This document shows positions 33,666 to 63,826 of a DNA stretch of 64,000 nt, piece by piece (the stretch's first letter is position 1; every line of letters starts with the position of its first letter). This stretch comes from a virus, in the IMG/VR virus record IMGVR_UViG_3300025141_016680, positions 34,045 to 98,044 of that record. One strand, written 5' to 3'. The translations under genes were made by a program, and so were the position numbers. The notes beneath the pieces were generated by a model, which saw only the letters and a program-made list of their open reading frames with translations, had not been told where the DNA came from and did not search any database.

Positions 33666-34097
33666 TTAAGTTTTAAAAACCAATGATTCTGCATACTGAA
33701 TAGCTGGTAACAGATAGTCAGGTAGAGATTCAAGTGCTTCTTCAAATGTAAGCCACTCATGACCTGTATGTTCTAAAATTCCTGTATCAGGATTGGGCAA
33801 AATAATAGGATCTTGCATAGTGCTAGCAACATAAGCATAGCCCTTTCCGTATTCTATCGGCTCAGAACCCCATTCAAAATTTAGATCTGTTATGCCAGCT
33901 TCTTCAGCTGTTTCTCTAATTGCTGCATCAAAGGGACTTTCTTCAGGTTCGATCAGACCTTTTGTTATGTCAAATTTTTTATTCCTCTTAAGACACAAAA
34001 TCTTGAAACCATCATCAAACTTTCTAATCACAACAATGCCTGCACTAATTTTGGGCACTTCAGTTTCAATTATTAGTCTTATTATCTCTCTGAGCAC
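33666..34097 (-). CDS. Nudix hydrolase (Ap4A-hydrolase-like) carrying the shared N-terminal leader
   Basis: Nudix box KGLIEPEESPFDAAIRETAEEAGI; EHTGHEWL; N-terminus MLREIIRLIIE. Confidence 0.9.
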   Translation of the reverse strand: MLREIIRLIIETEVPKISAGIVVIRKFDDGFKILCLKRNKKFDITKGLIEPEESPFDAAIRETAEEAGITDLNFEWGSEPIEYGKGYAYVASTMQDPIILPNPDTGILEHTGHEWLTFEEALESLPDYLLPAIQYAESLVFKT

Positions 34098-34107
34098 ATT
34101 CTAATTA

Positions 34108-34473
34108 TTATTTAGCCCTGCCAAAATCATCTTCAACCCTTACCACATCATCGATTTCAGTGGTAGAAACCTCTAATAGAGTAACCTGAGAATCTCTGGC
34201 TTCAAATCTATGAATTGTGTTAGGTGAGACGTGAAAGATCTCTCCAGGCCCAAGAGGACTAATTGTTAAATTACCCTCAGAGTTATTATGATGCAAGAAG
34301 AGAATGCCATCTAGAACTCTAATTGTCTCCTCTTTTTTCTCATGATATTGTAAGCTTAGCTTTTTATGAGGGTGAATATTCAGTATTTTTCCAACATAGT
34401 TTTCAGTTTTTGCCCAAATTTCTTCACTACCCCATGGCTTTTCAACAAATACTTTTTTCATTTTATTCCTCAC
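34108..34473 (-). CDS. Cupin (mannose-6-phosphate-isomerase C-terminal-like)
   Basis: KPWG, LSLQYHEKKEET, HRFEA, EVSTTEIDDVVRVEDDFGR. Confidence 0.85.
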   Translation of the reverse strand: MRNKMKKVFVEKPWGSEEIWAKTENYVGKILNIHPHKKLSLQYHEKKEETIRVLDGILFLHHNNSEGNLTISPLGPGEIFHVSPNTIHRFEARDSQVTLLEVSTTEIDDVVRVEDDFGRAK

Positions 34474-34526
34474 TTAAATGAAAAATAGGGTCTATCACTT
34501 AGTATACCTAATATTAGGACAGCCGT

Positions 34527-35321
34527 ATGAAAAATGTAACTCAAAAAGTAAGATTTTTAAAATTTATCAGATTTCATACTATTTTGATTACAATTTTTGC
34601 TGCATTTTTACTGCTAAAGGATAATCTATGGTTCAAGCAGGAGATGCCAGATAAAAACTTTATTAGTCTCATTATGACTAGAACGCACATGGATCAGTGC
34701 ATTGATACAGGCTGTATAGGAGAATACACAATACAGGATCTTGGAATGGCGACAGCTTCTGGTTTAGCCATAGGAACAATTAGCAATAAGACATACATTT
34801 TAACTGCAAATCACTTTTGTAACTCTGAGCAATATTCTCTGGGTATGTCTCCACTAGACGGATACATTATATCAAAAATTCATGTATCTGATGTCGATGG
34901 TAATTTATGGTCATCGAAGATTGTGTACGCTGATTTAAAATCTGATCTCTGCTTAATCGAATCAGAGATGTCAGCTGTTAATTCAATCAGGCTTTCGAGC
35001 ACGATGCCTGCAGTTGGAGAGAAAGTATTTGCACTGTCAGCCCCAGGAAGCATAGCTATGAAAGAGGTAGGGCTTCACCTAGAGGGATATTTTTCTGGAT
35101 GTGACTATCAAAACATGTGCTACTACACAATTCCATCAACGTTTGGAAGTTCGGGCAGCGTAATTCTCAATAGAAAGAGACAAATCATTGGAATGATTCA
35201 AATGTCGCCAAGAGACTTTAACTTTACGTCAATCGGTGTTGGTCTTGTGGCGATGAAAAGATTTCTTGAAAATGCATCTTCTGATTTAAAGATAGATCTC
35301 ATTAACTGGTCTGTTCAATAA
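34527..35321 (+). CDS. Trypsin-like serine protease with an N-terminal membrane anchor
   Basis: ILTANHFC, SDLCLI, FGSSGS catalytic-triad motifs. Confidence 0.88.
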   Translation: MKNVTQKVRFLKFIRFHTILITIFAAFLLLKDNLWFKQEMPDKNFISLIMTRTHMDQCIDTGCIGEYTIQDLGMATASGLAIGTISNKTYILTANHFCNSEQYSLGMSPLDGYIISKIHVSDVDGNLWSSKIVYADLKSDLCLIESEMSAVNSIRLSSTMPAVGEKVFALSAPGSIAMKEVGLHLEGYFSGCDYQNMCYYTIPSTFGSSGSVILNRKRQIIGMIQMSPRDFNFTSIGVGLVAMKRFLENASSDLKIDLINWSVQ

Positions 35322-35580
35322 TTCTTGCAATATAGATGCAAGCTCTATTTCTTTTATGTGCCTTATTCGGATTTTGACCGTGACCAGAGGTTAAGATTTT
35401 TGCGAGGTGTGGTTCCTGCCTCATTATTTTTCTCCATTGCTTTCTGAATTTCCTTTTCGATATTCTTCTAGCTTCAGAATCCATGGAGCTTAGCATCTCA
35501 ATAAGTTCATGTCCCGTAAATGCAGGAACCACACCCATTTCAAGCATCTTTAGCTTGGCAATAAATGACTTATCGTTCAT
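35302..35580 (-). CDS. Hypothetical basic protein
   Basis: ORF track; Lys/Arg-rich. Confidence 0.55.
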   Translation of the reverse strand: MNDKSFIAKLKMLEMGVVPAFTGHELIEMLSSMDSEARRISKRKFRKQWRKIMRQEPHLAKILTSGHGQNPNKAHKRNRACIYIARIIEQTS

Positions 35581-35696
35581 TTTTAAATACGGTTACTAAG
35601 GATCCAAGAGGATCCTTTTCACCTCTTCTATTATTGTTACTTATCTGATCCAAAAGGATCGAATAATTATAGAATGTTAAAGACGTCTTTACAACA

Positions 35697-36134
35697 ATGA
35701 GTAAAAAACTATACATCTCTAATTCGTTAGATTACACACCCATCCAGATGATGCTAATGTCTGAATTTTGTGTGTTTTGCATGCAACACTTGCCAGTCGA
35801 GGGAGATGTAAAAATATTGGTGGTCGATAACCGTGAAGATCATGGGATTAGCACCACAGGTGTTTACCACATCGGTGAGGGTTTGCTAAAGATCTACGCT
35901 AAAAATAGAGCGCTGGCAGATGTTTTAAGATCAATTGCACACGAATTGACTCACATGATGCAGGATGAGGTCGGGCTGATTCAAGGACCGGTGCAGGATG
36001 CTGGAGGTTTTCACGAGGACCAGGCCAACGCCAAGGCCGGGGAGATTATTAAGCTATTTGCTAAGAGCAAACCAGAGCGGAAAAAGATCTACGAATCAGT
36101 ACTTGCTAAAATGTTACTTGCTTCGCTTACGTAG
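35697..36134 (+). CDS. Putative HExxH zinc metallopeptidase
   Basis: LRSIAHELTHMMQ...HEDQANAKAG. Confidence 0.7.
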   Translation: MSKKLYISNSLDYTPIQMMLMSEFCVFCMQHLPVEGDVKILVVDNREDHGISTTGVYHIGEGLLKIYAKNRALADVLRSIAHELTHMMQDEVGLIQGPVQDAGGFHEDQANAKAGEIIKLFAKSKPERKKIYESVLAKMLLASLT

Positions 36135-36732
36135 AGGCAGGATCATATTTGCTAACGCTTTTAACTGTGATATGAACTGCGTTATTTTCCCGCTCAATTA
36201 AGGCTCTTAGCTTTACAGGAATGTTATCATTTTCTGACACGGCCTTCACCGCAGAGGCAATTTCATCAAGATTTGCACCGGAAACATCAAATGCTGTGCC
36301 ATCGCCGTGTCCAGCACGACCAATAAATCTATTGATTATAAGTCCCAGACCTTTTAGCTTCTTGTGTGCGACATCAAGATCATCGCTGGGCACATTCCTT
36401 TCTTTTGCATAATTCCTGATGATTCTATCCTGGTCCTCTTGTGTTCGAAGGCCTGACGTCAAACGTGATCCCGCAGGCAAATAAGGTTGCAACCACTTAA
36501 AAGCATTTTTTATCGCCGGAGTCAGCTTCACACCATCATTAATTCCGCTCTGATTGCGACTGACCTCTACTGCTACGCTTGTCGTCCTTGCTGGACTTCT
36601 AGCAGTTGTGGCTGCTTTCTCTCCCCGGCCTAAAGTAAATCCGGCGGCGCCCACCTTCTCCTGGAGTTCACTAGAGGTCTCATCAATAACCTCTTTAATA
36701 AGCAGCCTAATTTCCGCGGCAGAGAGAATCAT
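36127..36732 (-). CDS. Leader-bearing protein with an M15/LAS-like peptidoglycan peptidase domain
   Basis: MILSAAEIRLLIKE; LTSGLRTQEDQ, GHGDGTAFDVS, AVHI. Confidence 0.65.
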   Translation of the reverse strand: MILSAAEIRLLIKEVIDETSSELQEKVGAAGFTLGRGEKAATTARSPARTTSVAVEVSRNQSGINDGVKLTPAIKNAFKWLQPYLPAGSRLTSGLRTQEDQDRIIRNYAKERNVPSDDLDVAHKKLKGLGLIINRFIGRAGHGDGTAFDVSGANLDEIASAVKAVSENDNIPVKLRALIERENNAVHITVKSVSKYDPAST

Positions 36733-39377
36733 CAGCTGACCTCAAATTTGTCAGCGTTATCTTCAATCCATTTATGAATGGCATCCAGAGTAGCCTTTCC
36801 GTTCTCAGATGCAGTGATCTTTGTGTATAAGGGACCACGACCAAGTCTAAGGGAGACAATCTTATTATTCCAGCGCATACCGGGCCTCACTCTATACTCT
36901 TCTCCGTCATCTGACTGAATTCTGATTGCCTTGGCTCTTCTCACATCCTCACCCTGACCCCTTCTAAGATCTCTAATATTAAATTCAGGTCCCAGATCTC
37001 TTGAAGCTTTATAGACGTGTGTTCTTCCCTGATTTCTAACAACTGTCCTTGTTCGACCTGTTATAACATCCTCAGCAGCCTCACCAGTTTCGGGATCCTC
37101 AGCGGCAGGCTCAACATCATCAGGTACCCAGTCAGCACTAATCTTTTCAACTTCCTGCGGTTTATCATCCTGCGGCTTGTACTCCTCAAGAATCTTTATA
37201 AAATCTGAAACGTAAATATGTCTGTCTGTTCCGGGATACTTCATATCACGCTGCTGGTTGTAGAATCTTACCCACTCCCAGAATCCAGGGCCAACTCCCC
37301 TGGGTCTGTGATTTAGATCAACCCAAAGTTCTCTGATTCTTCTAGCAGATTCTGTGTCATCAGAGAGGTTAACATACTGTTCCCAGTCCCGAGCATACTT
37401 CTTCTGTGTGCCACCAGCAGCCGGTTCAGCAGTAGCCGCTCCAGCATCCTCAGAACCAGCTTCCTCTTCGGCCTTGGTAGCGGCAGCTTCCTCTTCCGGG
37501 GCTGCCTCGACAGTTTCCTCTTCGGCCTTGGCGGCAGCCGCTTCTTCGGCGGCATCGGCAACCTCTTCTTCATCATCTTTTGTTCCTGGCAAAGGTAGGC
37601 TATCAGGAATTTCGTCCGGTGACGTGAATCCGGCATCTTTAATCGTTGCCTCTTCCCTGATTATCTTAAAGATAGCATGACGAAGTGATGTCTCCTCGAT
37701 GCCCACCACATCCTTTCCCGCCTGCCAGGCGGCTTTGCCGGCGCCAACCACAGTTTCTGCAGCATCAGATGCAGCATCCGTCATGCTGACAGCTTGCATT
37801 CTAGCTAGTGCAGCATTCTTGTCGCCTGGGATTCTCTTTGCCTCTGCTTCAAATTTCTGAATTGCTGTGGTCTTGGAGCCGCCTGCCATTACAGATTCCA
37901 GCGCTGCCAGAACAGCCCGCTTAAGCGCCGCCGCAAAAATATCTTCTTTCTCCCTGCCTATGCCAGCAAGCTGCTTAACTGTCACCCCTGGCTGGAATTG
38001 CTCCGTGATATCACGAATAATTGCTTTTTGGCTTTCTGTATCAAGCATTCCCTTAAGAATGACTGCGGCCTCCTTGCCCATGGGACAGTTTCCCCATTCC
38101 TCCGAAAGGCTTCCCAGCCAGATTGTTCCGTGGTGAGTGGTGAGCCAGGCGACTCCTTTTCCGGCACGTTTGTAGGCACCAGCTCGTGTCATCTGACCTG
38201 GGCTTCCTCCTGGGATCTTCCAGACCTTAGGTCGACCCTTAGTTAGTAATTCAAGAAATTGTCCCGCTGCATCTTCGGCCTGAAACGGGGAGAGACGTTT
38301 AACGCGAGCGGAATGCATTCCTGTACGCTGAAGAAGAATATGGGCCAGGTCTGCCTCGGCCTTGTTTGGATCCTTCTGAAATACTTTGAGAAATTTTTCG
38401 ATATCTTTCTGATCAATACTCTTGAGCGCTCGTTGCGCTGATTTTGTTAATTGCTCACCTACCTGTCTCCCTGCCATCCGACCGGTTTTCTTCCCCACCA
38501 GCGCTACGCCAGCAATTGCAGCTGGTGTGCCTATCCCACCGGAGGCCACAGCTCCCCCGATCAAACCAACTACTGCCACAGCATCCATTGTGTTGAGGAC
38601 AATGTCTAACCAGGGCGTCGGTTCTGTTCTTTGCCCGCCGTAGATTCCCATCATCATCTTTGTCTTTGAAAGTCCCTCAAAATCATCCTTAATCAATTGA
38701 TAGATCGGTTTGGCAACACTGTCAATAAACTCACTAGCACCAGTGACACCGTCTAGTGCAGCTTCGATAGTAGTCGCCTTCGTCTGCAGGCCTTTGCTTA
38801 CGTCAATGATCTTGGCTATATCCTCCTGTGCCGCCCGAGAGCAGGTTTCCGCAGCAGCATGATCCTCACTATAGTCCCTATAGTATGACTTGACATCACT
38901 AGCAATTGTATATGTTGCGGCAACCTTCCATCGATCTAGAAGGTCAGAGTCTTTTATCTCTCCGGCACGATCGATAAACTCCTCCCAGTCCGACCTGCTC
39001 GTGCCGTATCCAAGAATCTTCAAGGACCCTGTTGTGTCTGTAAGGAGACCATTTATTGTCGGCAATTTTGATAGACCTCGAACCTGGGCAGGATTGCCAT
39101 CTTGATCAATTACTGGTCTGAGAACATTAGGTAGATAAAAAGCATTAAGCCACTGCTTAAACTGAATGAGAAAGGTCGAAAACTCGCCATCATCTCCGCC
39201 TTGCACATAGCCACCTGGAGAAGTCAGTAGATGTCTCTGCGCCATCATAATCACCTCTTTTCTCTTGTTGTCCCCTTCATCTGGAATCCAATTAAATCTC
39301 TCAGAAAGTATGACAAGCCTCTTTCTTTCGATTTCCTCACGAATAATCGCTCTTGCTTGTTTTTCGGATAATCTCAC
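36732..39377 (-). CDS. Large leader-bearing hypothetical protein (881 aa)
   Basis: MRLSEKQARAIIREEI; internal SLRHAIFKIIREE; a Gly/Ala hydrophobic hairpin; an Ala/Glu low-complexity linker. Confidence 0.75.
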   Translation of the reverse strand: MRLSEKQARAIIREEIERKRLVILSERFNWIPDEGDNKRKEVIMMAQRHLLTSPGGYVQGGDDGEFSTFLIQFKQWLNAFYLPNVLRPVIDQDGNPAQVRGLSKLPTINGLLTDTTGSLKILGYGTSRSDWEEFIDRAGEIKDSDLLDRWKVAATYTIASDVKSYYRDYSEDHAAAETCSRAAQEDIAKIIDVSKGLQTKATTIEAALDGVTGASEFIDSVAKPIYQLIKDDFEGLSKTKMMMGIYGGQRTEPTPWLDIVLNTMDAVAVVGLIGGAVASGGIGTPAAIAGVALVGKKTGRMAGRQVGEQLTKSAQRALKSIDQKDIEKFLKVFQKDPNKAEADLAHILLQRTGMHSARVKRLSPFQAEDAAGQFLELLTKGRPKVWKIPGGSPGQMTRAGAYKRAGKGVAWLTTHHGTIWLGSLSEEWGNCPMGKEAAVILKGMLDTESQKAIIRDITEQFQPGVTVKQLAGIGREKEDIFAAALKRAVLAALESVMAGGSKTTAIQKFEAEAKRIPGDKNAALARMQAVSMTDAASDAAETVVGAGKAAWQAGKDVVGIEETSLRHAIFKIIREEATIKDAGFTSPDEIPDSLPLPGTKDDEEEVADAAEEAAAAKAEEETVEAAPEEEAAATKAEEEAGSEDAGAATAEPAAGGTQKKYARDWEQYVNLSDDTESARRIRELWVDLNHRPRGVGPGFWEWVRFYNQQRDMKYPGTDRHIYVSDFIKILEEYKPQDDKPQEVEKISADWVPDDVEPAAEDPETGEAAEDVITGRTRTVVRNQGRTHVYKASRDLGPEFNIRDLRRGQGEDVRRAKAIRIQSDDGEEYRVRPGMRWNNKIVSLRLGRGPLYTKITASENGKATLDAIHKWIEDNADKFEVS

Positions 39378-39507
39378 AGCAAACCCCGTGCACTTTTCAA
39401 TAAATATGATGAAAAAGACGTATTATTAATAGATGTGCATAGTTGAAAACTATCATATTTCGTGCAAAAAGTGTTAGTGTATTTTAAAATAAGAGCATGG
39501 AGGTAAA

Positions 39508-40041
39508 ATGGTACTATTCGCAACGATTCTAGCGACCTTTTCTATTGCCCAGGCCAATCACGATCGATTCTTTGAAGATGTGACTTTTCAGACGGTGTCT
39601 CAATTCACGGATAGCAACGGAATCAAGGTAACGTATAAGGGTCCCAGTGAAAAGGACTTCAGTGAATTTAAGAGCGTATTTTTGGAAACAGCGCTTAGGT
39701 ACAGAAGTTTTGCCGACACGGGTGAAGCGGTCTGTAAGAATATTATTCTAACTGTCTATGACATCCCGTATGAGATGCTAAATGACAAAAAGAGAACCGC
39801 ATTTGTTGACTGGGAGGGGAGAAATAGAGTCTATGGATTTTATGATAAGGTGGACGCGGGGCCAGGAGAGGTCGGAATGTTTCTAAGCTACTCAGATGAC
39901 ATCAAGGACTTTCAGCGTCAGTATATCATGGCACATGAAAGCGCTCACTACTGGCAAGATATTCTGTGTCAGGAACGACCTGTAAGTGAAATTGAAGCAG
40001 AAGCCACTGCTTACGGCAAGTATTTTATCAGTCTTCACTAG
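39508..40041 (+). CDS. Secreted HExxH protein
   Basis: Signal-peptide-like N-terminus, MAHESAHYWQ, GGAGG SD, own promoter at 39461-39490. Confidence 0.65.
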   Translation: MVLFATILATFSIAQANHDRFFEDVTFQTVSQFTDSNGIKVTYKGPSEKDFSEFKSVFLETALRYRSFADTGEAVCKNIILTVYDIPYEMLNDKKRTAFVDWEGRNRVYGFYDKVDAGPGEVGMFLSYSDDIKDFQRQYIMAHESAHYWQDILCQERPVSEIEAEATAYGKYFISLH

Positions 40042-40261
40042 TCTCTTTCTGGGGGGTAAAAGCCCGACTAACTTTAACAAGAGAGTCACTAGTGTCGGCA
40101 TCGTAGTGAGGAATCTCTAGCTTGCCAAGCTGGAATTTTTCAGCCCGTGTCTGGATGGGGTGTGAAGCACCATACCCTTTGAATCCTCTCACCTGCACCT
40201 TTCCCAAGTCCTCAACAATGAGGCGGATGTACTCTCTCAATTCTTTCGCATTGACTCTCAC
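40028..40261 (-). CDS. Leader-bearing small protein
   Basis: MRVNAKELREYIRLIVED. Confidence 0.65.
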   Translation of the reverse strand: MRVNAKELREYIRLIVEDLGKVQVRGFKGYGASHPIQTRAEKFQLGKLEIPHYDADTSDSLVKVSRAFTPQKETSED

Positions 40262-40861: not shown

Positions 40862-41116
40862 CTAAACTGACTGACCCTGATCGGACTGACGTAACTTCGT
40901 AACATGAGAGATTAATTTCTCTATGATGCCAGAAACAGGCTCTACCATGCTTGCTAGCTGCTGCTGGATTGCAACTATGTCCTCCTCAATATTCTTGTAG
41001 ACATTTTCACGCTGGCCCTGCTGTTCTGCAGGAATCTCAATCACATTATCTTGCTCTGCAAGATGAATGATCTCCTCACGAATAAGCTGTCTAAGTGTGA
41101 TGCTACTGACTTTCAC
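40862..41116 (-). CDS. Leader-bearing small protein
   Basis: MKVSSITLRQLIREEIIHLAE. Confidence 0.7.
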   Translation of the reverse strand: MKVSSITLRQLIREEIIHLAEQDNVIEIPAEQQGQRENVYKNIEEDIVAIQQQLASMVEPVSGIIEKLISHVTKLRQSDQGQSV

Positions 41117-41199: not shown

Positions 41200-42291
41200 G
41201 TGAAAATATCTAAAGAAGAATTAAAAAATCTCGTCCAAGAAGAGATCCAGAAGATCATTAGCGAGAATCTTCTCAATGAGGCCAAGGATGTTAGCGACCA
41301 GGAATACATGGAATTGACGATGGCCAGCACAGAGGGTGACAACGAAGAATTTTTAAGATTGTGGGGAATATATGGTGACCCTAATGAGTATGTCCAAGAT
41401 GAAAGGATGAAGTACATGCTCAATCAGGGGATCGAGGCCAAGCTCCTTGACTCGGAAGGAAGACCTACTGCTCTGGGGGCGGGAGCGGATCCCCTTGCTG
41501 TCAGAGGTCTAGGCGCAGAGAAAAAGTCCTCCCGAACCATTCGAAAAGCAACATACACAATTGAAGATCTCAGGTCTGGAAAGGCTGTGGCAAGAATGGG
41601 TGATCGAGGCGGCATTGTAAAAACACTACAGAACATGTTGCTAACAGTTGGTGAAAAATTGCCCAAATATGGTACTGATAGTGACTTTGGGGGTGAAACT
41701 AAGGCAGCAGTTATATCATACCAGAAAAAAAATAACCTAAGTCCTGATGGTGTAATCGGAAAAAACACTTTTGCCAAGCTCTTTAGTGAGATAGGTGCTA
41801 TGCCTGACATTGACGACGGCACCGATAAGCTGACAGCCGGAGAGGTGCCGGGAGAAAAAGGCTCCAGAGCACTACCTGGTCCTGAATCTCTCTTTAATAA
41901 AGCCACATTTGTTCCGATTCTAAAGAGGGTCATCACCGCCGACATAGCTGATGAACAAGTGGCCTCGATTCATGCCGAGCTATTGTACAACGTTCTGGTG
42001 GGATCAGATCCGGCCGACGAAGCTGCCTTCACTTTCTGGAATGAAATCGACGTCGGTGAACGAGATAGATACCTAAATACTGCTGTGTTGATGGCAAAAA
42101 TGCCCGCTGAGTTTCCGAATCCTGAAGATGTCACTGATATTGTGAGGGGTAACCAAAGCTGGGAAGACGAGTTCCTGGAAGACCAGGCAACCTGGGAAGC
42201 ACCGAAAGAATCACTCGAAGAATCCTCCTCTCAGGATGGAAGCATTCTGAATGAGCGCTGGCAGAGACTTGCCGGAATAGATGTGCTGTAG
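41200..42291 (+). CDS. Leader-bearing protein with a peptidoglycan-binding (PG_binding_1-like) domain
   Basis: MKISKEELKNLVQEEI; GDRGGIVKTLQNML...DSDFGGETKAAVISYQKKNNLSPDGVIGKNT; C-terminus LNERWQRLAGI. Confidence 0.8.
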   Translation: MKISKEELKNLVQEEIQKIISENLLNEAKDVSDQEYMELTMASTEGDNEEFLRLWGIYGDPNEYVQDERMKYMLNQGIEAKLLDSEGRPTALGAGADPLAVRGLGAEKKSSRTIRKATYTIEDLRSGKAVARMGDRGGIVKTLQNMLLTVGEKLPKYGTDSDFGGETKAAVISYQKKNNLSPDGVIGKNTFAKLFSEIGAMPDIDDGTDKLTAGEVPGEKGSRALPGPESLFNKATFVPILKRVITADIADEQVASIHAELLYNVLVGSDPADEAAFTFWNEIDVGERDRYLNTAVLMAKMPAEFPNPEDVTDIVRGNQSWEDEFLEDQATWEAPKESLEESSSQDGSILNERWQRLAGIDVL

Positions 42292-43394: not shown

Positions 43395-43904
43395 TTAGGA
43401 GGAGAGAACAGGAGTGCCTATCAGAGTGGCAACCTCAACTGAAACATCAGCGATCTCGCGGTGGATGGGACGAAGCTCATCGGTTATGCCAAGAGTGGGG
43501 TCCAGACGAAACGACTCCAGGGTTCTTTGAACGGCACCCTTCTTGTCGAGATCGAACTTGGACTTACTTGCGATATCCAGCATCTTTTGAAAATTTTTGC
43601 CTTTTAACATCTGCCACTTGGCACCCCGATCAGGAAGTCCAAGAACACCTGACTTAAGTTCCATCATTCCACGCTTCACAGCGTCGGAAAGAAGCTTAAG
43701 AGCCTTATCATAGTCAATTCCATCTTCGTCGGGCTCTTTACCAACTGCGCGAAGAGAAGCAGCAGCAGAGGAGAGATCTGTAGCGACATCATCTAGATCG
43801 ACATCTCCGTCTCCATCCGAGTCGGCAGCCTCTTGAAATATTAGGCCGCCTATCTCGTTGAGAATTAGATCACGGAGAGAAAATTTATCCAACGAATTGG
43901 CCAT
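43395..43904 (-). CDS. Leader-like hypothetical protein
   Basis: FSLRDLILNEI near the N-terminus; DSDGDGDVD Ca-binding-like loop. Confidence 0.6.
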   Translation of the reverse strand: MANSLDKFSLRDLILNEIGGLIFQEAADSDGDGDVDLDDVATDLSSAAASLRAVGKEPDEDGIDYDKALKLLSDAVKRGMMELKSGVLGLPDRGAKWQMLKGKNFQKMLDIASKSKFDLDKKGAVQRTLESFRLDPTLGITDELRPIHREIADVSVEVATLIGTPVLSS

Positions 43905-43910: not shown

Positions 43911-44504
43911 CTATCCTTTGCTAAATTTCTTTATCTTAGGTTCTCGGACCTCATGGTGATGATGCTTTTCGGTTAGAATGGAAAGAGAGCTAGCAGGAAT
44001 GTTTTCGACGAGTGCATCTCCAAACTTAACATCGTACCAGTCAACATCACCGTTCTCTGTTAAGGAGTGCCAGACAGCATTTCCGATTTGATTTGTCTCA
44101 CCCTTGACACCGAATTCATTTTGCTCCTTGAGAGTCTTAAAGGCGACGTGATTAGCACAGGCGTGACCGAGAAGCTTCTTCTGGTCGGCGTTCAGCTTTG
44201 CCTTCACCATACCACTTCCGTGAGGAGCGGCCTTGTCACCTTTCGCGATATTTGCTATTTCCTCCTTGATCATCTCTCTAATGTCAGACATGCTCACGTG
44301 GGCTGTCTCACAGACACCGTGATCATAGGCTTTGACATAGTCCACCTGGTGAACAAGGTTGTCACCCCCGTCAAAAACGTCCTCTCGGGTTTCGATGTCA
44401 CTAACAGACTTACCGCCGAGTGTAGGATCCTTGAAACGATCCTCAGACTTCTTGGCCTCTTCGAGAATCATATCTTTAAGCTCTTCAATTGAAATTTTAG
44501 CCAT
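43911..44504 (-). CDS. Leader-bearing protein (two leader copies) with a His-rich C-terminal domain
   Basis: MAKISIEELKDMILEE; internal VSMSDIREMIKEEI; HACANHV...WYDVKF...EKHHHH. Confidence 0.7.
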   Translation of the reverse strand: MAKISIEELKDMILEEAKKSEDRFKDPTLGGKSVSDIETREDVFDGGDNLVHQVDYVKAYDHGVCETAHVSMSDIREMIKEEIANIAKGDKAAPHGSGMVKAKLNADQKKLLGHACANHVAFKTLKEQNEFGVKGETNQIGNAVWHSLTENGDVDWYDVKFGDALVENIPASSLSILTEKHHHHEVREPKIKKFSKG

Positions 44505-45070: not shown

Positions 45071-45682
45071 TCAGAGAAGGCGGAAGATGAGATATTCGCC
45101 GACCTCACGATCCAGCGAGGCCACGCGTGAGATACGGTTGATCCACCACTCCTTGGGTTGCACGGTCAGGTGAGTGCCACCGGACTGCTTATAGGCGATC
45201 TGGAAGATAAAACCGACACTGGCGATGCGCGCGAACTCGTCAAGGGTCTCGTCGATATCCTCCTCAAATATGTGCTCCATCATGTCAAAGGCGGTGATCC
45301 ACTCCACGGAGTTATCGTCAATAGGTACCTCCCAGGCGGGAGCTGTGATCCATGTGACTCCCTCACCCTCTGCGGGACACACCCAGTCAACGCCGATAAT
45401 GGGGTCAATGCCCTGGTCCCTGGCCCAGAGACAGAAACGTCCGTCCCCCGTTCCTATGTCACAGACAGAGCCAACTCCCATCTCGGCGAGATAAGGAAGG
45501 AAGCCGCGAGCGTGAAAGCCGGTGTCCTTGGAAGCACGATTAACTCCCAGTGCATCCTTATAGGAGAATAGGTCCTTATAGTAATTGTAGTAGCCCCAGC
45601 GAGTGTCAAAGAATACTGGGCTCTGCTTATAGGTGAGATCCACTGAGTCCATGGGATCCCGAGTGTCTGAGTTATCAGCCAT
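45071..45682 (-). CDS. Class I SAM-dependent methyltransferase
   Basis: VCDIGTGDG, GVDW, FDMMEHI, HLTVQPKEWW; AGGAGG SD before MADNS. Confidence 0.85.
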   Translation of the reverse strand: MADNSDTRDPMDSVDLTYKQSPVFFDTRWGYYNYYKDLFSYKDALGVNRASKDTGFHARGFLPYLAEMGVGSVCDIGTGDGRFCLWARDQGIDPIIGVDWVCPAEGEGVTWITAPAWEVPIDDNSVEWITAFDMMEHIFEEDIDETLDEFARIASVGFIFQIAYKQSGGTHLTVQPKEWWINRISRVASLDREVGEYLIFRLL

Positions 45683-45773
45683 GTTGTTTTCCTCCTGGTA
45701 ACGGTAACAATTAAATATGGAGTATTCTGAGGGAAGACCGAGCAGCCCGCACCCGTTTGTTGCGCCCGAGCAT

Positions 45774-45800
45774 AAAAAAAGGGGGTGCCAAGGCACCCCC
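45774..45800 (-). terminator. Intrinsic terminator
   Basis: Minus strand GGGGGTGCC-TT-GGCACCCCC followed by T7. Confidence 0.85.
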
Positions 45801-46138: not shown

Positions 46139-46330
46139 TTATTGTCCTTGAAGACCCCAGAGCTTTATCACCTTATCCATGACGAATTCCATGCTAACTT
46201 CTAGGTCTTTAATTCTCTCCTCGGGAGATTTTTCTCTCTGGGCCGCTGACGTATGAAAGACGTCCTGTTCTGCGAGAAGTGCGGCCTCTTCTATGATCAT
46301 CTGTCTGAGTTGCTTGCTTGTAAGTTTCAT
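46139..46330 (-). CDS. Leader-bearing small protein
   Basis: MKLTSKQLRQMIIEEAALLAE. Confidence 0.7.
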   Translation of the reverse strand: MKLTSKQLRQMIIEEAALLAEQDVFHTSAAQREKSPEERIKDLEVSMEFVMDKVIKLWGLQGQ

Positions 46331-55097: not shown

Positions 55098-55385
55098 TTA
55101 CACCTCCTGCAGCATGTTGAGAGGAACGGTCCACAGTGTATTCTGAACCTGGACCTGAGCACGTGTCCGCTTGATTGCGTGGATAGTTCCTTCTTTATAG
55201 GAACGTTTACCGTTTGCTGAAGGGTCACCGAATGAAACTCGATCACCTTTCCGAAACAGATTTCGTGCAGCACGATTCTGTTGGCGCCGCTTATGCTTCA
55301 GCTCGTGCACAAGTGCGTCATTCAACCGAACGAGATCCGCCACATCGAGCGAACCAAGACCGCTTACCATATTATCAAGGGACAT
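55098..55385 (-). CDS. Protein with a C-terminal SH3/KOW-like domain
   Basis: FRKGDRVSF...GTIHAIKRTRAQV...WTVPLNML; promoter 55409. Confidence 0.7.
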   Translation of the reverse strand: MSLDNMVSGLGSLDVADLVRLNDALVHELKHKRRQQNRAARNLFRKGDRVSFGDPSANGKRSYKEGTIHAIKRTRAQVQVQNTLWTVPLNMLQEV

Positions 55386-57573: not shown

Positions 57574-57584
57574 CTTATATCCTG

Positions 57585-57848: not shown

Positions 57849-57856
57849 TATATCTC

Positions 57857-58126
57857 CTAATCATTGAGAACTTTAAGATTGATGGCGGTTCCAAATCCAG
57901 TATTCCAGTAGGACCAATATAGAAACCTACCACCCATTGCTGCAGCCTCCCTCACTGAACCCGCTATAAGAAACTCCAAGGTGTCACCAGCGGGCATTTC
58001 AATCTCAACGATCGGGGGTGGTGATTCCCACACAGGTCCGATTCCGATCTCTGATGCCTCAACAATGATGTCAAATCCTTCGGGATCGTCATCATTATGA
58101 AAGATGTTTTCCTTGGTAACCTTCAT
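57857..58126 (-). CDS. Hypothetical protein
   Basis: AAGGA SD; promoter 58146. Confidence 0.6.
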   Translation of the reverse strand: MKVTKENIFHNDDDPEGFDIIVEASEIGIGPVWESPPPIVEIEMPAGDTLEFLIAGSVREAAAMGGRFLYWSYWNTGFGTAINLKVLND

Positions 58127-58183
58127 TATCTGTCCTTATGCATTTATTCTACCACAGCTACCTGTGTGTTGCACGCAGGCAGA

Positions 58184-58660
58184 CTATGAGATGAATCTTA
58201 CCTCGCACAGCACCCGGTCATCCCTACTACTGACGTGCATCTCGTAGCAACCGTCGCCGTATCCTGAGGAGGTTACAAACCCCTGAGCACGAGCCGCAGC
58301 GTCAAAGTTACCGTAATACGGCTCAGAAAGGGTGACGTTACAGGCACTGGAATATCCCACACCACCGTCACCGTAGTCACCGTCGAGGACATAGCACGGG
58401 TCACTGAAGACAACAGCATCACATCCCTCGGGAATTGTGAGCACAGCGTCAATGGGCATGATCCTGTCGGTGGACATGAGAAGGCTCCCGATGTATGACT
58501 CATCCTCATCAGCGTGATCAACTGTAATGTAGATCTCACGGGTGCCCACTGGCAGTGAGACAACCCTGATGCCGCGAGCCATACTTCTCAGCTTCGTGAC
58601 ATCACATGCAGTTTTCGGAATAATGGCCATCTGGCCGCTGTCAACAAAAAGTCCACTCAT
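58184..58660 (-). CDS. DUF4241-like protein
   Basis: VDSGQ, SDPCYV, SGYGDGCY motifs. Confidence 0.6.
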   Translation of the reverse strand: MSGLFVDSGQMAIIPKTACDVTKLRSMARGIRVVSLPVGTREIYITVDHADEDESYIGSLLMSTDRIMPIDAVLTIPEGCDAVVFSDPCYVLDGDYGDGGVGYSSACNVTLSEPYYGNFDAAARAQGFVTSSGYGDGCYEMHVSSRDDRVLCEVRFIS

Positions 58661-58982
58661 AATATTCTCCTATCCTAGTGATCCTGATATAACATAGTGA
58701 CCGTAGGAACCTGACACTGCGGCCCTGATCTTTGCCTTCGCCTCATCCTTGTCCCGAGCAAGCACATGCCTGACTCCGTATGTAATGCGTCGTGTGGTCT
58801 TGTGTGGGTATTCAAATCTAACCTGCCACCTGATCATTGTCCGGCTCCTTGTGTACCTATTGTACCACAGCCCCAGTGCTATTGCATGTCAGTGGGCAAG
58901 GGTTGATGGTTTGTTCCACACCTGGGACACCTGTGCCAGAGTCGATACTCTGTCCTGGAGCCACATCGTCTACACTTATAGA

Positions 58983-59174
58983 TCATTGACTTTTACTGAT
59001 CAACTCGACTTCATCGAAACAGTACGTGGTCTCAGCTCCGGTGTCAAGCATCTTTACCCAGACGTGCCCGCCTCCATGCCAGTGGCCATTCGCGATGCTC
59101 TCTTCCTCGTGCACCTCTGTCACCTCGCAGTAGCTTCCGGACTGGTTGACCTTGACAATATCACCTACTTTCAT
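58983..59174 (-). CDS. MKVGDLV-family SH3/KOW-like protein
   Basis: MKVGDIVKV...EVELIS. Confidence 0.7.
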   Translation of the reverse strand: MKVGDIVKVNQSGSYCEVTEVHEEESIANGHWHGGGHVWVKMLDTGAETTYCFDEVELISKSQ

Positions 59175-59677
59175 TTATTACACCTGTTCCTTCGTTCCTT
59201 CTTCCACTGTTGATAATCTGGGTCTTCGAATTGTTCCTCACCCAGCCCAGACAACAACAAATCATATTCAGTCTCATGGGTGTCATACCATCCCCATCCG
59301 TTTCGACACTGGTCCAGCATCACAAATCTAGCAACCTCTTTCTTCCAAAGAGCTTCGTACTTTCTGTCACGAGCATCACCATCAATTTTAGAAGCTATCT
59401 TATTGGCTTTCTTCTTCCACCCAGGAAACTGTTCGTCCAGGCTTCGTGGGTCTGGAGGTGGTCGCGGTCGATAATTCGATTTATGCCATTGAGCGTTCCG
59501 TCTAGCTTTTTTCTGATCATGCAAGTAGGACAATAAAAAACCAACAGACCAAACCCCCGGCAAAATCCACCAAAAAGCTTTGTGGTAGACGACCAGCATA
59601 ATCCACCCGATCGGGTGGAGAAACAGGAAGCCCACCGGGACAAAGATCGCACTTGCAACAAACTCAAAGACTTTCAC
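59171..59677 (-). CDS. Membrane protein (two N-terminal TM helices)
   Basis: Hydrophobic N-terminus, charged C-terminus; GAGGTG SD. Confidence 0.6.
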   Translation of the reverse strand: MKVFEFVASAIFVPVGFLFLHPIGWIMLVVYHKAFWWILPGVWSVGFLLSYLHDQKKARRNAQWHKSNYRPRPPPDPRSLDEQFPGWKKKANKIASKIDGDARDRKYEALWKKEVARFVMLDQCRNGWGWYDTHETEYDLLLSGLGEEQFEDPDYQQWKKERRNRCNK

Positions 59678-59864
59678 TAATCACCTCACAACCCCTCTCA
59701 TAAAACGTCATTCGTCGTTCTGGTTCTCCCTGGGGCATGACTATGATCGCATCTCCACACCTTTTAGAATAGTTCGCGTCGACCACCTGATTCTTCTCCA
59801 AGATGATGCCCACTGTACCTTCATAAATCCCCCCTACCCTTCTCACAAGGTCACCGACTTTCAC
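59664..59864 (-). CDS. MKVGDLV-family SH3/KOW-like protein
   Basis: MKVGDLVRR...GTVGIIL...EVISES. Confidence 0.75.
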   Translation of the reverse strand: MKVGDLVRRVGGIYEGTVGIILEKNQVVDANYSKRCGDAIIVMPQGEPERRMTFYERGCEVISESL

Positions 59865-60084
59865 TAATCACCTCTGCGTCACCACGAGAAACATCAAATT
59901 CATCCAATCGCCATTCACCGCAGTCGAACATTACATGCCAGCTATTCATAGGTGCAGGTCCGAGGACAACGCCAATCCTATTAGATTTCCCACCACAAAA
60001 AAAGCACTGACATGCTTCATAGAGGGGATGCAATACATCGAGATGTTTGCATTCTTTTACTTTTACCAAATCACCGACTTTCAT
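59851..60084 (-). CDS. MKVGDLV-family SH3/KOW-like protein with a Cys insertion
   Basis: MKVGDLVKV...CQCFFC...IGVVL...EVISES. Confidence 0.75.
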   Translation of the reverse strand: MKVGDLVKVKECKHLDVLHPLYEACQCFFCGGKSNRIGVVLGPAPMNSWHVMFDCGEWRLDEFDVSRGDAEVISESR

Positions 60085-60236
60085 TACTTGCCACCTTGTT
60101 CTCGATAGCACTTGGCACACAGAGTGCCTTGATCGTGAGATCCGTTAAGAATGTAAAACCAGCCGGTGTCACTATGACTGCAGCGATTGCATGTTGGTGC
60201 GTATATTGCTGCGTATGTCTCTTTCCAATAGTTCAT
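60084..60236 (-). CDS. Small Zn-finger-like protein
   Basis: CNRC...LCAKC; AAGGAG SD; promoter 60258. Confidence 0.55.
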   Translation of the reverse strand: MNYWKETYAAIYAPTCNRCSHSDTGWFYILNGSHDQGTLCAKCYREQGGK

Positions 60237-60398
60237 TGTGACTCCTTGTATGATTCTATTATAACCTACCCTTACCTTTCTTTGCACGCCGCTTTGCCCA
60301 ACGGTAACCGGCCCACGCGATCATGGGTGACAGCACCACCATCACAGCAAGGCTCCAGGCAAACTCCTTCAGGGGAACATGCTCGTGCCTCCTTTTGG

Positions 60399-61163
60399 TC
60401 AATCTGTCTCCAGTGGAGCGAGGGTGATGGTGAACGAGGGCGTGGAGTTCCTCCAGTAGTCCGTCCTCTCCTGAAGCTTTGTAACAGCCTGATCCATTGT
60501 CAGGCGCTCCTTATCCAAGGCAGCATTCAGTTTTTTAACCTTGCTCGGCTTTGCACCCTCAAGCCGATTTCGCAGTCCTCTCTGACGCTCAAGCCAGCTC
60601 TCATCGAGCTCCCGCCGCTTGAGGGCAATCTTCTCCAGCTCCCGCTCGTTTCGGCTCGACACTGATCCCCAGAGCACATTGCACCTGTCCATCGCCCGAT
60701 CCTTCCGCATTCTCGCCTTCTGTCGGGCACCCGGTGACGGGGGATGAAAGTCGTCCGGAGTGAGCTCCTCGAAGTGCAGGACAGCAAAATTCTCAAAACC
60801 TGGGTCAGCGAGCACGAACAGAAAGTCGAGCGCTCCCTTGCGCGTGAGGGTAACGTAATCCGTCTGAAGGGAGTAGTTTTTGTACCTGCCCGAGCCCGAG
60901 CTGATCTTGCACTCCAGCTCGCGATCAAGATCCGGGAGCACGATGTCCGCCTCTCCGGTACGCCCATCCACCTTCACCGACCAACTTTGGGCCAGCTCAC
61001 GCCCGAAGAAGTTCTCCTGCGCCTGGGACATGATGATGTTCCTCCGGCCGATATTATCAGCCAGCGGGAGCCCGTAACGGTCGAAGAGACAGCGCATTTC
61101 TCCCTCGAAGGTTCGCATCCTGGTGAGGGCAGATAGAACCATTTCGCGTGTCAGGTAGCTCAT
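60399..61163 (-). CDS. Putative PD-(D/E)xK nuclease with a C-terminal coiled coil
   Basis: QENFF...GEADIVLPDLDRELECKIS (E...D...ExK). Confidence 0.6.
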   Translation of the reverse strand: MSYLTREMVLSALTRMRTFEGEMRCLFDRYGLPLADNIGRRNIIMSQAQENFFGRELAQSWSVKVDGRTGEADIVLPDLDRELECKISSGSGRYKNYSLQTDYVTLTRKGALDFLFVLADPGFENFAVLHFEELTPDDFHPPSPGARQKARMRKDRAMDRCNVLWGSVSSRNERELEKIALKRRELDESWLERQRGLRNRLEGAKPSKVKKLNAALDKERLTMDQAVTKLQERTDYWRNSTPSFTITLAPLETD

Positions 61164-61164
61164 T

Positions 61165-61404
61165 TTACTCGCACGCAGCGTCCTCTTCGATGTCACCGCC
61201 CATGAACTGGACGCTTGTCATTCCCTCAGATGTGACCCTTCCACCGGGCCAGAGCACCTGATATCGCAACTTTCCTGACCCGTCGAACATGTTCCACTCA
61301 GGCCTGATCACCACTCCAAGCTGTCCGGCACCGCCCTCAAAGACACTCCGACTGGCGTGATTCTTCGCTCTCTTTGTCAACTTAACCAGATCACCAGGCC
61401 TCAT
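61165..61404 (-). CDS. MKVGDLV-family SH3/KOW-like protein
   Basis: MRPGDLVKL...LGVVI...YQVLWPGG. Confidence 0.7.
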   Translation of the reverse strand: MRPGDLVKLTKRAKNHASRSVFEGGAGQLGVVIRPEWNMFDGSGKLRYQVLWPGGRVTSEGMTSVQFMGGDIEEDAACE

Positions 61405-61575
61405 GATTGCTCCTCCTGCTGCTGTAGAAATTGCTCTTCCCACTCAACCTCCCTCAGAAATTGAGTGTGTTCCGGATACTCGTCATTGTCTGAGCAGTGT
61501 TCAAACTGTCCAGAAAGGTCTTCGAAAAGTGGATTATCAGCGTTCATGTTGTCCCCTTATGACGCTATTCTACCA

Positions 61576-61881
61576 CTAGTCCGCAGCCCTTACACGCGTC
61601 CCCTTGCGTGACTTGTTCCGCGAATCTCGTCTCCTGTCCTTCGCTTTTACTCTCTCCTTCCTCTCCTTCGGCTCATTAGTCGAGGGCGAGGGCGATGGTG
61701 GAGCGGTCAGCTTATCGATCATTTTGTTCAATCTCGCCCTCTCTTTTTCAGCACCCTCGCCCTCGCCAAGTCGAGCGTCGAGCACCGCGAGTTGACCCAT
61801 CGCAGTCCGAGTTGTCCTCGCCATCGATCTCTTCTCAGCTCGATGCCGTCTCTCCTCTCTCGCTTCGTGCCCTCGCATCAC
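61576..61881 (-). CDS. Highly basic hypothetical protein
   Basis: QLAVLDARLGEGEGAEKERARL; Lys/Arg-rich tail. Confidence 0.65.
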   Translation of the reverse strand: MMRGHEAREERRHRAEKRSMARTTRTAMGQLAVLDARLGEGEGAEKERARLNKMIDKLTAPPSPSPSTNEPKERKERVKAKDRRRDSRNKSRKGTRVRAAD

Positions 61882-62029
61882 ATCGTCCAGAGGGCGAAAC
61901 CGAGCACCGTGAAGACGATGGCAGCACCCGTGAGTGTGAGTTCGATGGCCGTGACTCGACCCTCAAGATTGTCCATGCATGTTCCTCCTTGTTATTTCAT
62001 CATACCCTATTCCAGGCGATTGTACAAGC

Positions 62030-62248
62030 TGACAATGTGTCAATTGAGTGACAAAATGACGACGCGAGTGACAGTGTGTCAATGCTTTTGTGACAGTTTG
62101 TCATAATTCGCGTGTGAGCGGGGGCTAAGTGCCGACTACCATTTCCGGGCGCTCGATGCTGGGTACTCGATCAGGACGCAGAAAAAGCTGTGTGCTCGAT
62201 GAATGACAATCTGTCACGCATTGACAACGTGTCATTGACAACTGGCCA
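62030..62248. promoter_or_regulatory. Array of 13-bp palindromes TGACA-N3-TGTCA
   Basis: Perfect copies at 62030, 62069, 62091, 62204, 62222; degenerate copies at 62049 and 62236. Confidence 0.8.
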
Positions 62249-62371
62249 CGTGTCCCGGGCGCTAGATCCCGGGTACTCGACGCTGGGCGCTCGATGTTGG
62301 GTGCTAGATGCCGAGCGCTAGATCGGGGTGCTAGATGCTGGGTGCTGGATCAGGTACCCGGGTGCTCGACA
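62145..62371. repeat. 14-bp iteron-like direct repeats (CYGGGYRCTMGATS)
   Basis: Two units at 62145-62172, seven tandem units at 62255-62351, one at 62358. Confidence 0.85.
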
Positions 62372-62373
62372 CG

Positions 62374-63231
62374 TCATCCTATCGGCTCGGTGGGTGGCAC
62401 GGTTGCCTTGGTGATCTCTCCTCTGTCCACTGCTCTCCACTTACCGGCGTGCCACTGCCACGTCACCGTGCTTCCGCCTGCATCCGTGGTCTCCGCTGTC
62501 TCTCCCTCTGAGCCTTCATGCTCCGGTGGGACGTCACCCGCATCTTCACGTAGTAGAGATGCCTGTAGCTCTTCCCTTATTATTCTTTTAAGTTGTCTAC
62601 GCGATATCTTCTGTAGCTCAAACAGGCGTTTTTTAAGAAAGGCAAACTTTGCTTGACGATATTTCCGAGCCGCATCTGCCCAGGGACCAGTGTGAGGCAT
62701 CCAGCGATTCATGCTGAAGACCACAGTGGACCCAGCACCGTGAGAGGCAACCTGCTCCTTCCATACCGGTAGATCATCCTCTGAGTCGAGTGTGCTCCAC
62801 CAGTCTCCGCCTCCGGCGTTGGATACATTCATGTGACCTTTCTCATCAGGTTGCCACTCGAGGTCGTCTATTGGGATTCCGGTGTCGTATCTTCCTGGAA
62901 ATTCTCCAAGTGCGCCGCCATGTGCTTCCCTGATGATTCTTCTTAATTGTCTACGTGTGATGCGCATACCGTCGCCGTCTGTGTCAACTGCCTCATGAAC
63001 TTCTTTAGCTGGATCGAGTGCGCGTGTATACCAGTCTGCTACGTCTTTGGGATCCTCACCGTCCAGCCACTCGTCATATAAGTTTAGCCTATCAACAATG
63101 ATCCCTGCAAAATCCTTGAACGACATGCCATCTTCTCTCTGTGAGGCAGCATGTGATATTGCCTCTTCAGATCTCATCTCACCAACTGTCTCTTTGATGA
63201 GTTTTCTTAACTGTCTACGTGTGATCTTCAT
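62374..63231 (-). CDS. Protein with three copies of the shared leader motif
   Basis: MKITRRQLRKLIKE; MRITRRQLRRIIRE; KISRRQLKRIIREE..LLRE. Confidence 0.8.
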   Translation of the reverse strand: MKITRRQLRKLIKETVGEMRSEEAISHAASQREDGMSFKDFAGIIVDRLNLYDEWLDGEDPKDVADWYTRALDPAKEVHEAVDTDGDGMRITRRQLRRIIREAHGGALGEFPGRYDTGIPIDDLEWQPDEKGHMNVSNAGGGDWWSTLDSEDDLPVWKEQVASHGAGSTVVFSMNRWMPHTGPWADAARKYRQAKFAFLKKRLFELQKISRRQLKRIIREELQASLLREDAGDVPPEHEGSEGETAETTDAGGSTVTWQWHAGKWRAVDRGEITKATVPPTEPIG

Positions 63232-63265
63232 CTCTTGCGGTCAGCCTACGATTATATGTATTCTC

Positions 63266-63826
63266 TCAGCTCTGATCTTTTATTGTTTGACCGCCTGCTC
63301 CCGGTCGAATACCCACAGACGCTGCTGTCTCTGGTGAGATCACCCACTGTGGTCTCACTCCTGTCTCGTCGGTGAATTGCTTGATGATATCATCCACCTC
63401 CCAGCTCATGGGATTATCCTCGAGGTAGTACCTTATATCCGCCACCCGCATCTCACTGGCAACTCCCATCACGATGTTCTTGAGGTACCAGGGGTACACG
63501 TCGGATATCTTCTCATCCGGCAGGAGGTAACGCTCCTCAGGAGCACCCAGACCTCTGATCGCTGCGAGCTCTGGATTCAGCCTGACCAGATCATCGACGA
63601 TGGCGTTGTAGAAACCTGTGGCCTCTTGTGGATCACGTGGCTCCTCCCCCATAATGTGGACCTGAAGTGCCTCTGGTGAGCTGAACTCAGGCGGTAGCTT
63701 GTAGCTGCGGATCATGTTGATCCCAGTCTTCTCGTAGAAGTCACGAGGAGGAGACATGTATTGAAACTCCTCGGCCGCAGCTTCCTCTGACAGGATCTCC
63801 CTGATGTACTCTCGAAGAAGGCTCAT
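63266..63826 (-). CDS. Leader-bearing hypothetical protein
   Basis: MSLLREYIREILSEE. Confidence 0.75.
   Translation of the reverse strand: MSLLREYIREILSEEAAAEEFQYMSPPRDFYEKTGINMIRSYKLPPEFSSPEALQVHIMGEEPRDPQEATGFYNAIVDDLVRLNPELAAIRGLGAPEERYLLPDEKISDVYPWYLKNIVMGVASEMRVADIRYYLEDNPMSWEVDDIIKQFTDETGVRPQWVISPETAASVGIRPGAGGQTIKDQS

Follow-up and report, generated by a model that had tools for sequence, protein, structure and literature searches.

Why should a series of otherwise unrelated phage proteins begin with the same short peptide? This question is raised by a 64,000-nucleotide stretch of viral DNA (the whole of which is referred to here as the window) that makes up the right two thirds of the 98,044-bp virus record IMGVR_UViG_3300025141_016680, for which CheckV estimated a completeness of about 27%. 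In the window, nine open reading frames (ORFs) carry 12 consensus copies of a leader, a charged amphipathic helix of approximately 20 residues. Judged by its sequence, the source is a giant myovirus of the T4-like lineage, marine and uncultured; genes for baseplate wedge proteins resembling gp6 and gp25 are present on the record, and a gp55-like late sigma factor gave a weak match (E = 4.6e-4). The evidence presented below indicated that the leader probably serves as a propeptide, similar in design to the capsid-targeting sequence (CTS) of T4, that loads proteins into the capsid and is cleaved after loading.

A preliminary description of this DNA had counted about 11 leader proteins, and the eleven N termini that it quoted were all found at their coordinates. 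A profile built from these N termini was run over the six frames of the whole 98-kb record and returned 14 matches of at least 11.4 bits, confined to window positions 34 to 46.4 kb and 62.3 to 63.9 kb, with noise no higher than 10.3 bits; the profile also recovered three internal copies from outside the first seed set (44297, 62967, and 62610). The same scan found no copy in the tail, glycan, PhoH, or PrkA regions, and the early island (46.4 to 62.3 kb) likewise contained no leader, as had been described. When ten triplet-shuffled genomes were scanned, the best score was 8.0 bits with 0 matches of at least 11 bits, and the reversed genome gave one match of at least 11 bits. With at most one match in shuffled or reversed DNA, chance or composition was rejected as the origin of the motif. 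Nine of the ORFs were robust members, namely those starting at 36732, 39377, 40261, 41116, 41200 (plus strand), 43904, 44504, 46330, and 63231. The remaining two, at 34097 (the Nudix gene) and 63826, possess only the second half of the motif (L-R-E-[IY]-I-R...), and because they scored at noise level when the profile was iterated on the relatives (5.4 bits for 63826 and <4 bits for the other), both were counted as weak members.

Over 61 copies from five phages, the consensus was M-K-[LIV]-[TS]-x-x-x-L-[RK]-x-[ILM]-[IV]-[RK]-E-E-[ILV]-x-x-[LVI]-L, in which hydrophobic positions 3, 8, 11/12, 16, and 19/20 form one face of the helix. AlphaFold predicted residues 5 to 30 of one member to be helical, with low confidence. 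No hydrophobic segment that might act as a Sec/Tat signal peptide or membrane anchor was present at the N terminus of any leader protein, and a signal peptide was rejected since the leader is charged and amphipathic. An arginine-rich RNA-binding motif was also rejected, because many copies contain few arginines. The false matches to the leader profile all came from an off-frame peptide, H-L-S-Q-F-x-L-R-L-M-I-L, repeated three times (window positions 19499, 20657, and 21476, plus strand) on the strand opposite a 2,432-residue gene; the threefold repetition indicated DNA repeats inside that gene.

Unrelated genes might also start alike if the conservation lay in the nucleic acid, for instance if the leader DNA were a site of recombination, a region for translation initiation, or a cassette copied recently. 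The GTG start codons of 5 of the 11 genes, and a stretch of DNA shared by the three copies in the ORF at 62374 to 63231, would be in keeping with such an origin. However, where leaders had identical residues, the same codon was used at a frequency of 0.40, compared to 0.37 expected, in this phage, and the corresponding values in two relatives were 0.44/0.40 and 0.42/0.44; the mean nucleotide identity of the leaders was 42 to 52%. Synonymous codons thus matched only at the rate set by codon usage in three genomes, indicating that the peptide is conserved and the DNA itself is not. Moreover, internal and C-terminal copies occur far from any start. A DNA-level element was therefore disfavored by the codon comparison, and we regard it as extremely improbable. 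The GTG starts belong to four robust members (39377, 40261, 41116, and 41200) and to the weak Nudix member (34097), and almost all starts in the relatives are ATG. Since GTG coincides with model position 1 in the four robust members, these starts are supported.

Relatives were sought with the baseplate wedge protein as the query, which gave 151 related IMG/VR loci; three records were used whole, G001 (320 kb, 81% complete), G002 (123 kb), and G003 (108 kb). The first two share tail and accessory genes with this phage in synteny at 40 to 70% identity. Leader-profile matches numbered 8 in G001, 2 in G002, and 12 in G003. With the G001 capsid protein, the nearest named genomes were Flavobacterium phage immuto, Microcystis phage Mel-JY01, and the 484-kb uncultured phage LR756508.1. 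The last of these gave 25 profile matches genome-wide and approximately 30 leader ORFs in the 75 kb examined, where they surround the portal, protease, scaffold-position, and capsid genes. In the five phages together (this one and four uncultured relatives), 61 matches of at least 10 bits were obtained versus 1 in reversed controls, and 43 of the 61 begin exactly at the start codon. The leader had been presented as N-terminal; it is not exclusively so, given the internal copies in this phage and a few C-terminal copies in relatives.

The head of the particle was first implicated by the genes that accompany the leader in these relatives. Both G001 and G002 encode a gp21-type protease of the Peptidase_S77 family (93 and 86 bits, respectively; phrog_207, head maturation protease, 1.4e-52; in G002 at 67581 to 68207) and a gp23-type capsid protein, and both follow the T4 gene order (portal, conserved protein, protease, small ORFs, large acidic protein, capsid protein). 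The ORF directly downstream of the protease opens with the leader in each case (23.0 bits in G002 and 10.2 bits in G001); these ORFs gave no match to Pfam or PHROGs. The capsid proteins of five relatives carry LRE, LRE, VSE, ISE, and LKE aligned at the L-T-E of T4 gp23, a known gp21 cut, so that the preference of the protease for [LIV]-x-E has seemingly been retained in the lineage. The leader itself has [LIVM]-x-E at model positions 12 to 14 in 47 of the 61 copies, and within positions 9 to 18 in 56. A second L/I-x-E behind the leader, which the preliminary description had reported as frequent, was present among residues 15 to 40 in 31 of 43 N-terminal members, compared to 14.9 +/- 2.9 after these residues were shuffled. 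The density of [LI]-x-E per 100 positions fell from 7.8 in the leader to 3.9 in the next 25 residues and 1.1 in the rest.

A second, independent connection to the head involves the proteins whose genes lie directly before the capsid gene, that is, in the position of the scaffold. These have an N-terminal region that is common across the relatives and closely similar C-terminal tails: R-W-Q-L-L-A-G-I in G001 (123491 to 123529, minus strand), R-W-A-R-L-A-G-L in G002 (71693 to 71722, plus strand), R-W-Q-K-L-A-G-I in immuto, R-M-K-K-L-A-G-I in Mel-JY01, and R-M-Q-K-L-A-D-I in LR756508.1. The 363-residue leader protein of the window (41200 to 42291, plus strand) ends, in the tail encoded at 42256 to 42291, with ...E-R-W-Q-R-L-A-G-I-D-V-L. 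Only three occurrences of R-W-x-x-L-A-G-[ILV] were found in six frames of approximately 720 kb, each 9 to 12 residues before a stop codon, and these three are the two scaffold-position proteins of G001 and G002 and the 363-residue cargo. By analogy with other scaffolding proteins, the tail R-W-x-x-L-A-G-[IL] is put forward as a candidate capsid-binding tail. The leader profile, on the other hand, found no match in the scaffold-position proteins (best score, 1.6 bits), and the idea that the leader copies a segment of the scaffold is therefore unsupported by sequence.

The proteins behind the leader are diverse, and for most of them no domain was recognizable (median length, 136 residues). Starting from the left, the weak Nudix member (33666 to 34097, minus strand; 143 residues) has the truncated leader M-L-R-E-I-I-R-L-I-I-E, followed from residue 17 by the NUDIX domain of Pfam. 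The 201-residue protein (36127 to 36732, minus strand; 16.6 to 21.9 bits) consists of the leader at residues 1 to 20, a variable linker, and a conserved basic C-terminal domain. Next to it, the 881-residue protein (36732 to 39377, minus strand; 16 to 17 bits) begins with GTG and is an orphan. Two small proteins follow, both with GTG starts and both on the minus strand: one of 77 residues (40028 to 40261; 13.8 to 21.7 bits) with the variant L-R-E-Y-I-R-L-I-V-E, and one of 84 residues (40862 to 41116; 21.9 to 26.6 bits) with a second site, L-A-E. The 363-residue protein on the plus strand (leader, 21 to 22 bits) contains PG_binding_1 at residues 137 to 194 (Pfam E = 1.2e-11). On the minus strand again are a 169-residue acidic protein whose leader starts at residue 3 (43395 to 43904; 13.7 to 23.2 bits); a 197-residue protein (43911 to 44504) with one copy at residue 2 (15.4 to 22.1 bits) and another at about residue 68 (44303 to 44238; 19.9 to 27.2 bits); and a 63-residue protein (46139 to 46330) that gave the top match of the window, at 25.3 to 29.3 bits. 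Beyond the early island lie a 285-residue protein (62374 to 63231, minus strand) with three copies, from 63231, 62967 (Met kept), and 62613 (26.7, 28.7, and 22.3 bits), and the weak 186-residue acidic member (63266 to 63826, minus strand), with the truncated leader M-S-L-L-R-E-Y-I-R-E-I-L-S-E-E; L-R-E-Y-I-R is common to this leader and that of 40261.

Pfam confirmed the Nudix and peptidoglycan-binding labels that had been given to two of these proteins. The M15-like label given to the 201-residue protein was found to be only suggestive. Its VanY match (12.7 bits, E = 0.11) was below the cutoff of 25, a sequence search of the PDB had no match, and an AlphaFold model from a three-sequence alignment was too poor for use (predicted local distance difference test [pLDDT] score, 38). 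However, the motif H-x6-D plus a later His is visible, and VanY/M15 neighbors in the protein atlas scored 0.90 to 0.91; the C-terminal domain is thus probably a VanY/M15-like peptidase. In a homologue (P0003), the leader and the domain were kept and the linker was not. Only a handful of homologues were found for the 201-residue and Nudix cargos. The N-terminal extension is kept in Nudix homologues at 79 to 83% identity and is absent from those at 41 to 48%. The 881-residue cargo had no relative in cultured phages or IMG/VR, and a search of a 5.8-billion-protein set returned only the protein itself; a role as tape measure was rejected since the syntenic relative G003 has no homologue. According to hydropathy, this protein contains a Gly/Ala-rich hydrophobic stretch at about residues 259 to 294, the only hydrophobic segment among the leader proteins; such segments do occur in leaderless genes of the island.

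The turnover of the leader genes was also distinctive. The cargo island of the window (33.6 to 46.4 kb) is syntenic with 43.6 to 51.7 kb of G003, beside the PrkA/SpoVR/DUF444 genes in both. Leaderless genes (those for a trypsin-like peptidase, a DUF6055-like protein, and a membrane protein) aligned between the two phages at 36 to 57% identity, and no leader gene could be aligned, each having been either replaced or diverged past alignment. If packaging does occur, such turnover between syntenic relatives would mark the leader genes as arms-race loci. Within the island of the window, leaderless genes encode a trypsin-like peptidase that has a hydrophobic segment at its N terminus (34527 to 35321, plus strand), a cupin resembling mannose-6-phosphate isomerase (34108 to 34473, minus strand), and a methyltransferase (45071 to 45796, minus strand).

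Alternatively, all of these proteins could be fast-evolving paralogues, a single family of small proteins of the head core or interior in which the helix is the only part still recognizable and no tag was ever grafted. In favor of this view, the members are mostly small, lack a recognizable domain, and stand in tandem arrays. Against a single family, independent folds occur behind the leader (Nudix, with its weak leader; PG_binding_1; and the probable VanY-like domain), the distant Nudix homologues lack the extension, and no two of the cargo parts align: when 54 leader ORFs from the five phages were compared by BLAST after 22 residues had been trimmed, no mutual similarity other than overlaps within an ORF was found. 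The multicopy ORFs weigh in the same direction. Three copies in a single ORF were also seen in G003, and when 1.84 billion representatives were searched with a profile of 30 columns, 810 proteins, each a cluster, matched at an E value of 0.001 or lower. Nearly all of these have at least two copies, as a library this large puts significance out of reach for a single copy. In the 150 best of the 810, the leader was at residue 1 in 134, and 113 of 188 internal copies had Met at model position 1. Multicopy ORFs therefore look like fusions of adjacent tagged cassettes. Common descent of all the cargo is, in our estimate, quite improbable; this alternative concerns origin and is compatible with a function in head targeting. 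Five proteins from the global library (P0013, P0014, P0016, P0021, and P0091), each of approximately 1,000 residues with an N-terminal signal or anchor and 6 to 14 weak leader-like stretches, are probably an unrelated helical-repeat family caught by the short profile.

Together, these results favor a CTS-like propeptide, for which the following course of events may be proposed. The leader helix would dock soluble proteins made late in infection on the scaffolding core of the assembling prohead, where the gp21-type head protease would cut after [IV]-x-E at position 14, often with a second cut at an [LI]-x-E located 5 to 25 residues further on. The cargo would then be free inside the capsid and would leave with the DNA at infection. 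Multicopy ORFs would be cargo cassettes that have fused, or else small polyproteins with a cut at every copy. The preliminary description had likewise suggested a different, much-expanded head-packaging tag, and this was partly supported: the lineage is T4-like, the gp21 and gp23 families are present in relatives, [LIVM]-x-E is fixed in the leader, a leader gene follows the protease, the cargo is hypervariable, and distant Nudix homologues are leaderless.

Several observations weigh against cleavage and head loading. The gp21-like protease was found in G001 and G002 and not on the 98-kb record; since this gene and the other head genes lie outside the record, the link to the head rests on the relatives. 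The scaffold-position proteins match nothing in Pfam or PHROGs and are putatively identified as scaffold, by gene order and end motifs only. At the proposed cut, the following residue (P1') of the leader is usually Glu, whereas it is Ala, Ser, or Val at the sites of the T4 and relatives' capsid proteins. Most of the cargo is acidic (isoelectric point, 4.5 to 6), and T4 internal proteins are basic. The cultured phages T4, Mel-JY01, Syn9, S-PM2, P-SSM2, and HTVC008M (the last four being the Kyanoviridae set) gave 0 leader matches, and immuto gave 2 weak ones; a tblastn search of all cultured phages with the two-copy leader protein was empty, although short matches in that search cannot reach an E value of 1. 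Furthermore, the conservation of the leader continues past the proposed cut, at positions 15, 16, 19, and 20, and two of the cargos appear to be peptidoglycan directed, which is odd for delivery to the cytoplasm by a contractile tail and unexpected in a myovirus head.

The last two of these points, in conjunction with the single hydrophobic face of the helix and the existence of internal and C-terminal copies, could be accounted for by a permanent docking or oligomerization helix of the coiled-coil type, never cleaved, that tethers accessory proteins to a common partner, not necessarily the capsid interior; this partner could be a membrane surface, an assembly within the cell, or some other part of the virion. 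Peptidoglycan-directed cargo would be better suited to a location in the tail or envelope. However, in the relatives the leaders cluster around head genes and beside the head protease, the near-invariant Glu14 with I/V at -2 reproduces the protease motif that the capsid proteins have retained, [LI]-x-E is enriched right behind the leader, and one cargo has a scaffold-type tail. We consider an uncleaved helix to be the main rival but an unlikely one, and the cleaved, CTS-like propeptide to be the probable function of the leader. A wider proposal is offered with more reserve, as a possibility of somewhat less than even chance: that giant T4-like phages of an abundant, uncultured marine clade load a large and ever-exchanged arsenal into the capsid, for delivery together with the DNA, by means of one portable helix that acts as an address label, perhaps by mimicking a scaffold contact. 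The arsenal would, as part of the same joint claim, include a Nudix hydrolase, a cell wall peptidase, and multicargo polyproteins cut at each copy.

The leader genes may be expressed late in infection. An ATAnTTA box had been described before most of them, which was correct for 34097, 39377, 41116, 41200, and 44504, or 7 of 11 if operon coupling is counted; 46330, 63231, and 63826 lack ATAnTTA and instead show TATAGAT or TATAAT-like boxes. The box precedes five of the six leader genes that have an intergenic upstream region, with ATATTTA 23 nucleotides upstream of 39377, ATAATTA 22 nucleotides upstream of 41116, and ATATTTA about 21 nucleotides upstream of 44504; examples in the window are at 39400, 41145, 41160, and 44525. 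In G000 to G003, ATAnTTA was present in 45 of 335 upstream regions versus 1.4% expected, an approximately tenfold enrichment, and lay mostly 15 to 25 nucleotides before the start codon. The capsid gene of G001, the sheath-size and fiber-size genes of G002, and the gp25-like gene of this phage all have the box upstream. From this enrichment and its place before virion genes, ATAnTTA is a candidate for the late promoter of the lineage. Only two occurrences of the T4 late promoter, TATAAATA, were found in the record. In the early island of G003 (positions 22000 to 38500; L123 and L124), CGTGCAA at about 50 nucleotides and TATAATA at about 27 nucleotides precede the starts of many small genes, and CGTGCAA is also found before the window genes at 55098 to 55385 and 57857 to 58126.

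Elsewhere, the record contains a large glycan island, and Pfam identified in the window a PIN-PhoH fusion (22827 to 24116) and a triad at 29081 to 33522 composed of PrkA (AAA_PrkA plus PrkA), SpoVR, and DUF444 (YeaH-like). The PIN-PhoH and triad genes are 60 to 74% identical in G002 and G003. The G+C content is approximately 36% in the left part and 44 to 55% from 36 kb on, that is, over the cargo and early islands (window positions 36000 to 64000).

The CTS of T4 is the textbook case of a virus that loads chosen proteins into its head and injects them, but only a few proteins of a single, well-studied group are covered by it. If the present reading is correct, the loading of variable cargo would be far more extensive and would take place in an abundant clade of uncultured marine phages; under the wider proposal, injected protein cargo would constitute a major modular layer of the conflict between phage and host. 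Candidate injected effectors, such as antidefense factors and enzymes that act in the first seconds of infection, could then be listed by sequence from metagenomes alone. If packaging does occur, the leader and the scaffold-type C-terminal tail would be candidate tags for packaging foreign proteins.

A full-text literature search returned precedents in T4 and in giant phages and no description of the present leader. Among known systems, the C-terminal coat-binding tails of phage scaffolding proteins and the cargo-loading peptides of encapsulins resemble it in that a short terminal peptide brings a protein to the inner surface of a capsid; they differ in that the tail occurs on only one leader cargo, with capsid binding deduced from the scaffold position, and in that no encapsulin is involved here. 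In the giant phages phiKZ, 201phi2-1, and SPN3US, propeptides of inner-body and ejection proteins are cut by gp21-related proteases (gp175 and gp245) (PMC9026906). These too are giant phages in which many head proteins are cut after Glu, and their redundant propeptide sites (PMC9026906) recall the second [LI]-x-E of the leader proteins. Their motif, however, is small residue-x-Glu, no single shared leader is described for them in the sources consulted, and the leader lineage is T4-like, not phiKZ-like, by its capsid protein and protease.

The closest parallel is with T4, in which an N-terminal CTS of 10 residues, removable by gp21, brings IPI to IPIII, Alt, and foreign fusions into the scaffolding core, and in which the T-even internal proteins form a diverse set, encoded at hypervariable loci, with the CTS alone in common (PMC3012670, PMC9026906). 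The CTS of IPII and IPIII, MKTYQEFIAE, was confirmed twice in the T4 genome. Several differences were evident. The leader profile found nothing in T4 at an E value of 10 or lower, and the two peptides are not homologous in sequence; at about 20 residues, the leader has double the length of the CTS and is conserved beyond its putative cut. Approximately 4 proteins are tagged in T4, compared to 9 to 11 cargo genes in 30 kb of this phage and the 25 profile matches of the 484-kb relative. The leader cargo is mostly acidic and includes enzymes, copies inside ORFs are frequent, and the leader is known from sequence alone. Nevertheless, both are short N-terminal peptides that start with M-K, end in [LI]-x-E, and are carried by unrelated, fast-changing proteins, and both occur with a gp21-family protease and a gp23-family capsid protein, in the relatives in the case of the leader. 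The same design and context without sequence homology make the leader a probable CTS-like analogue that lies, by sequence, outside the CTS family of T4.

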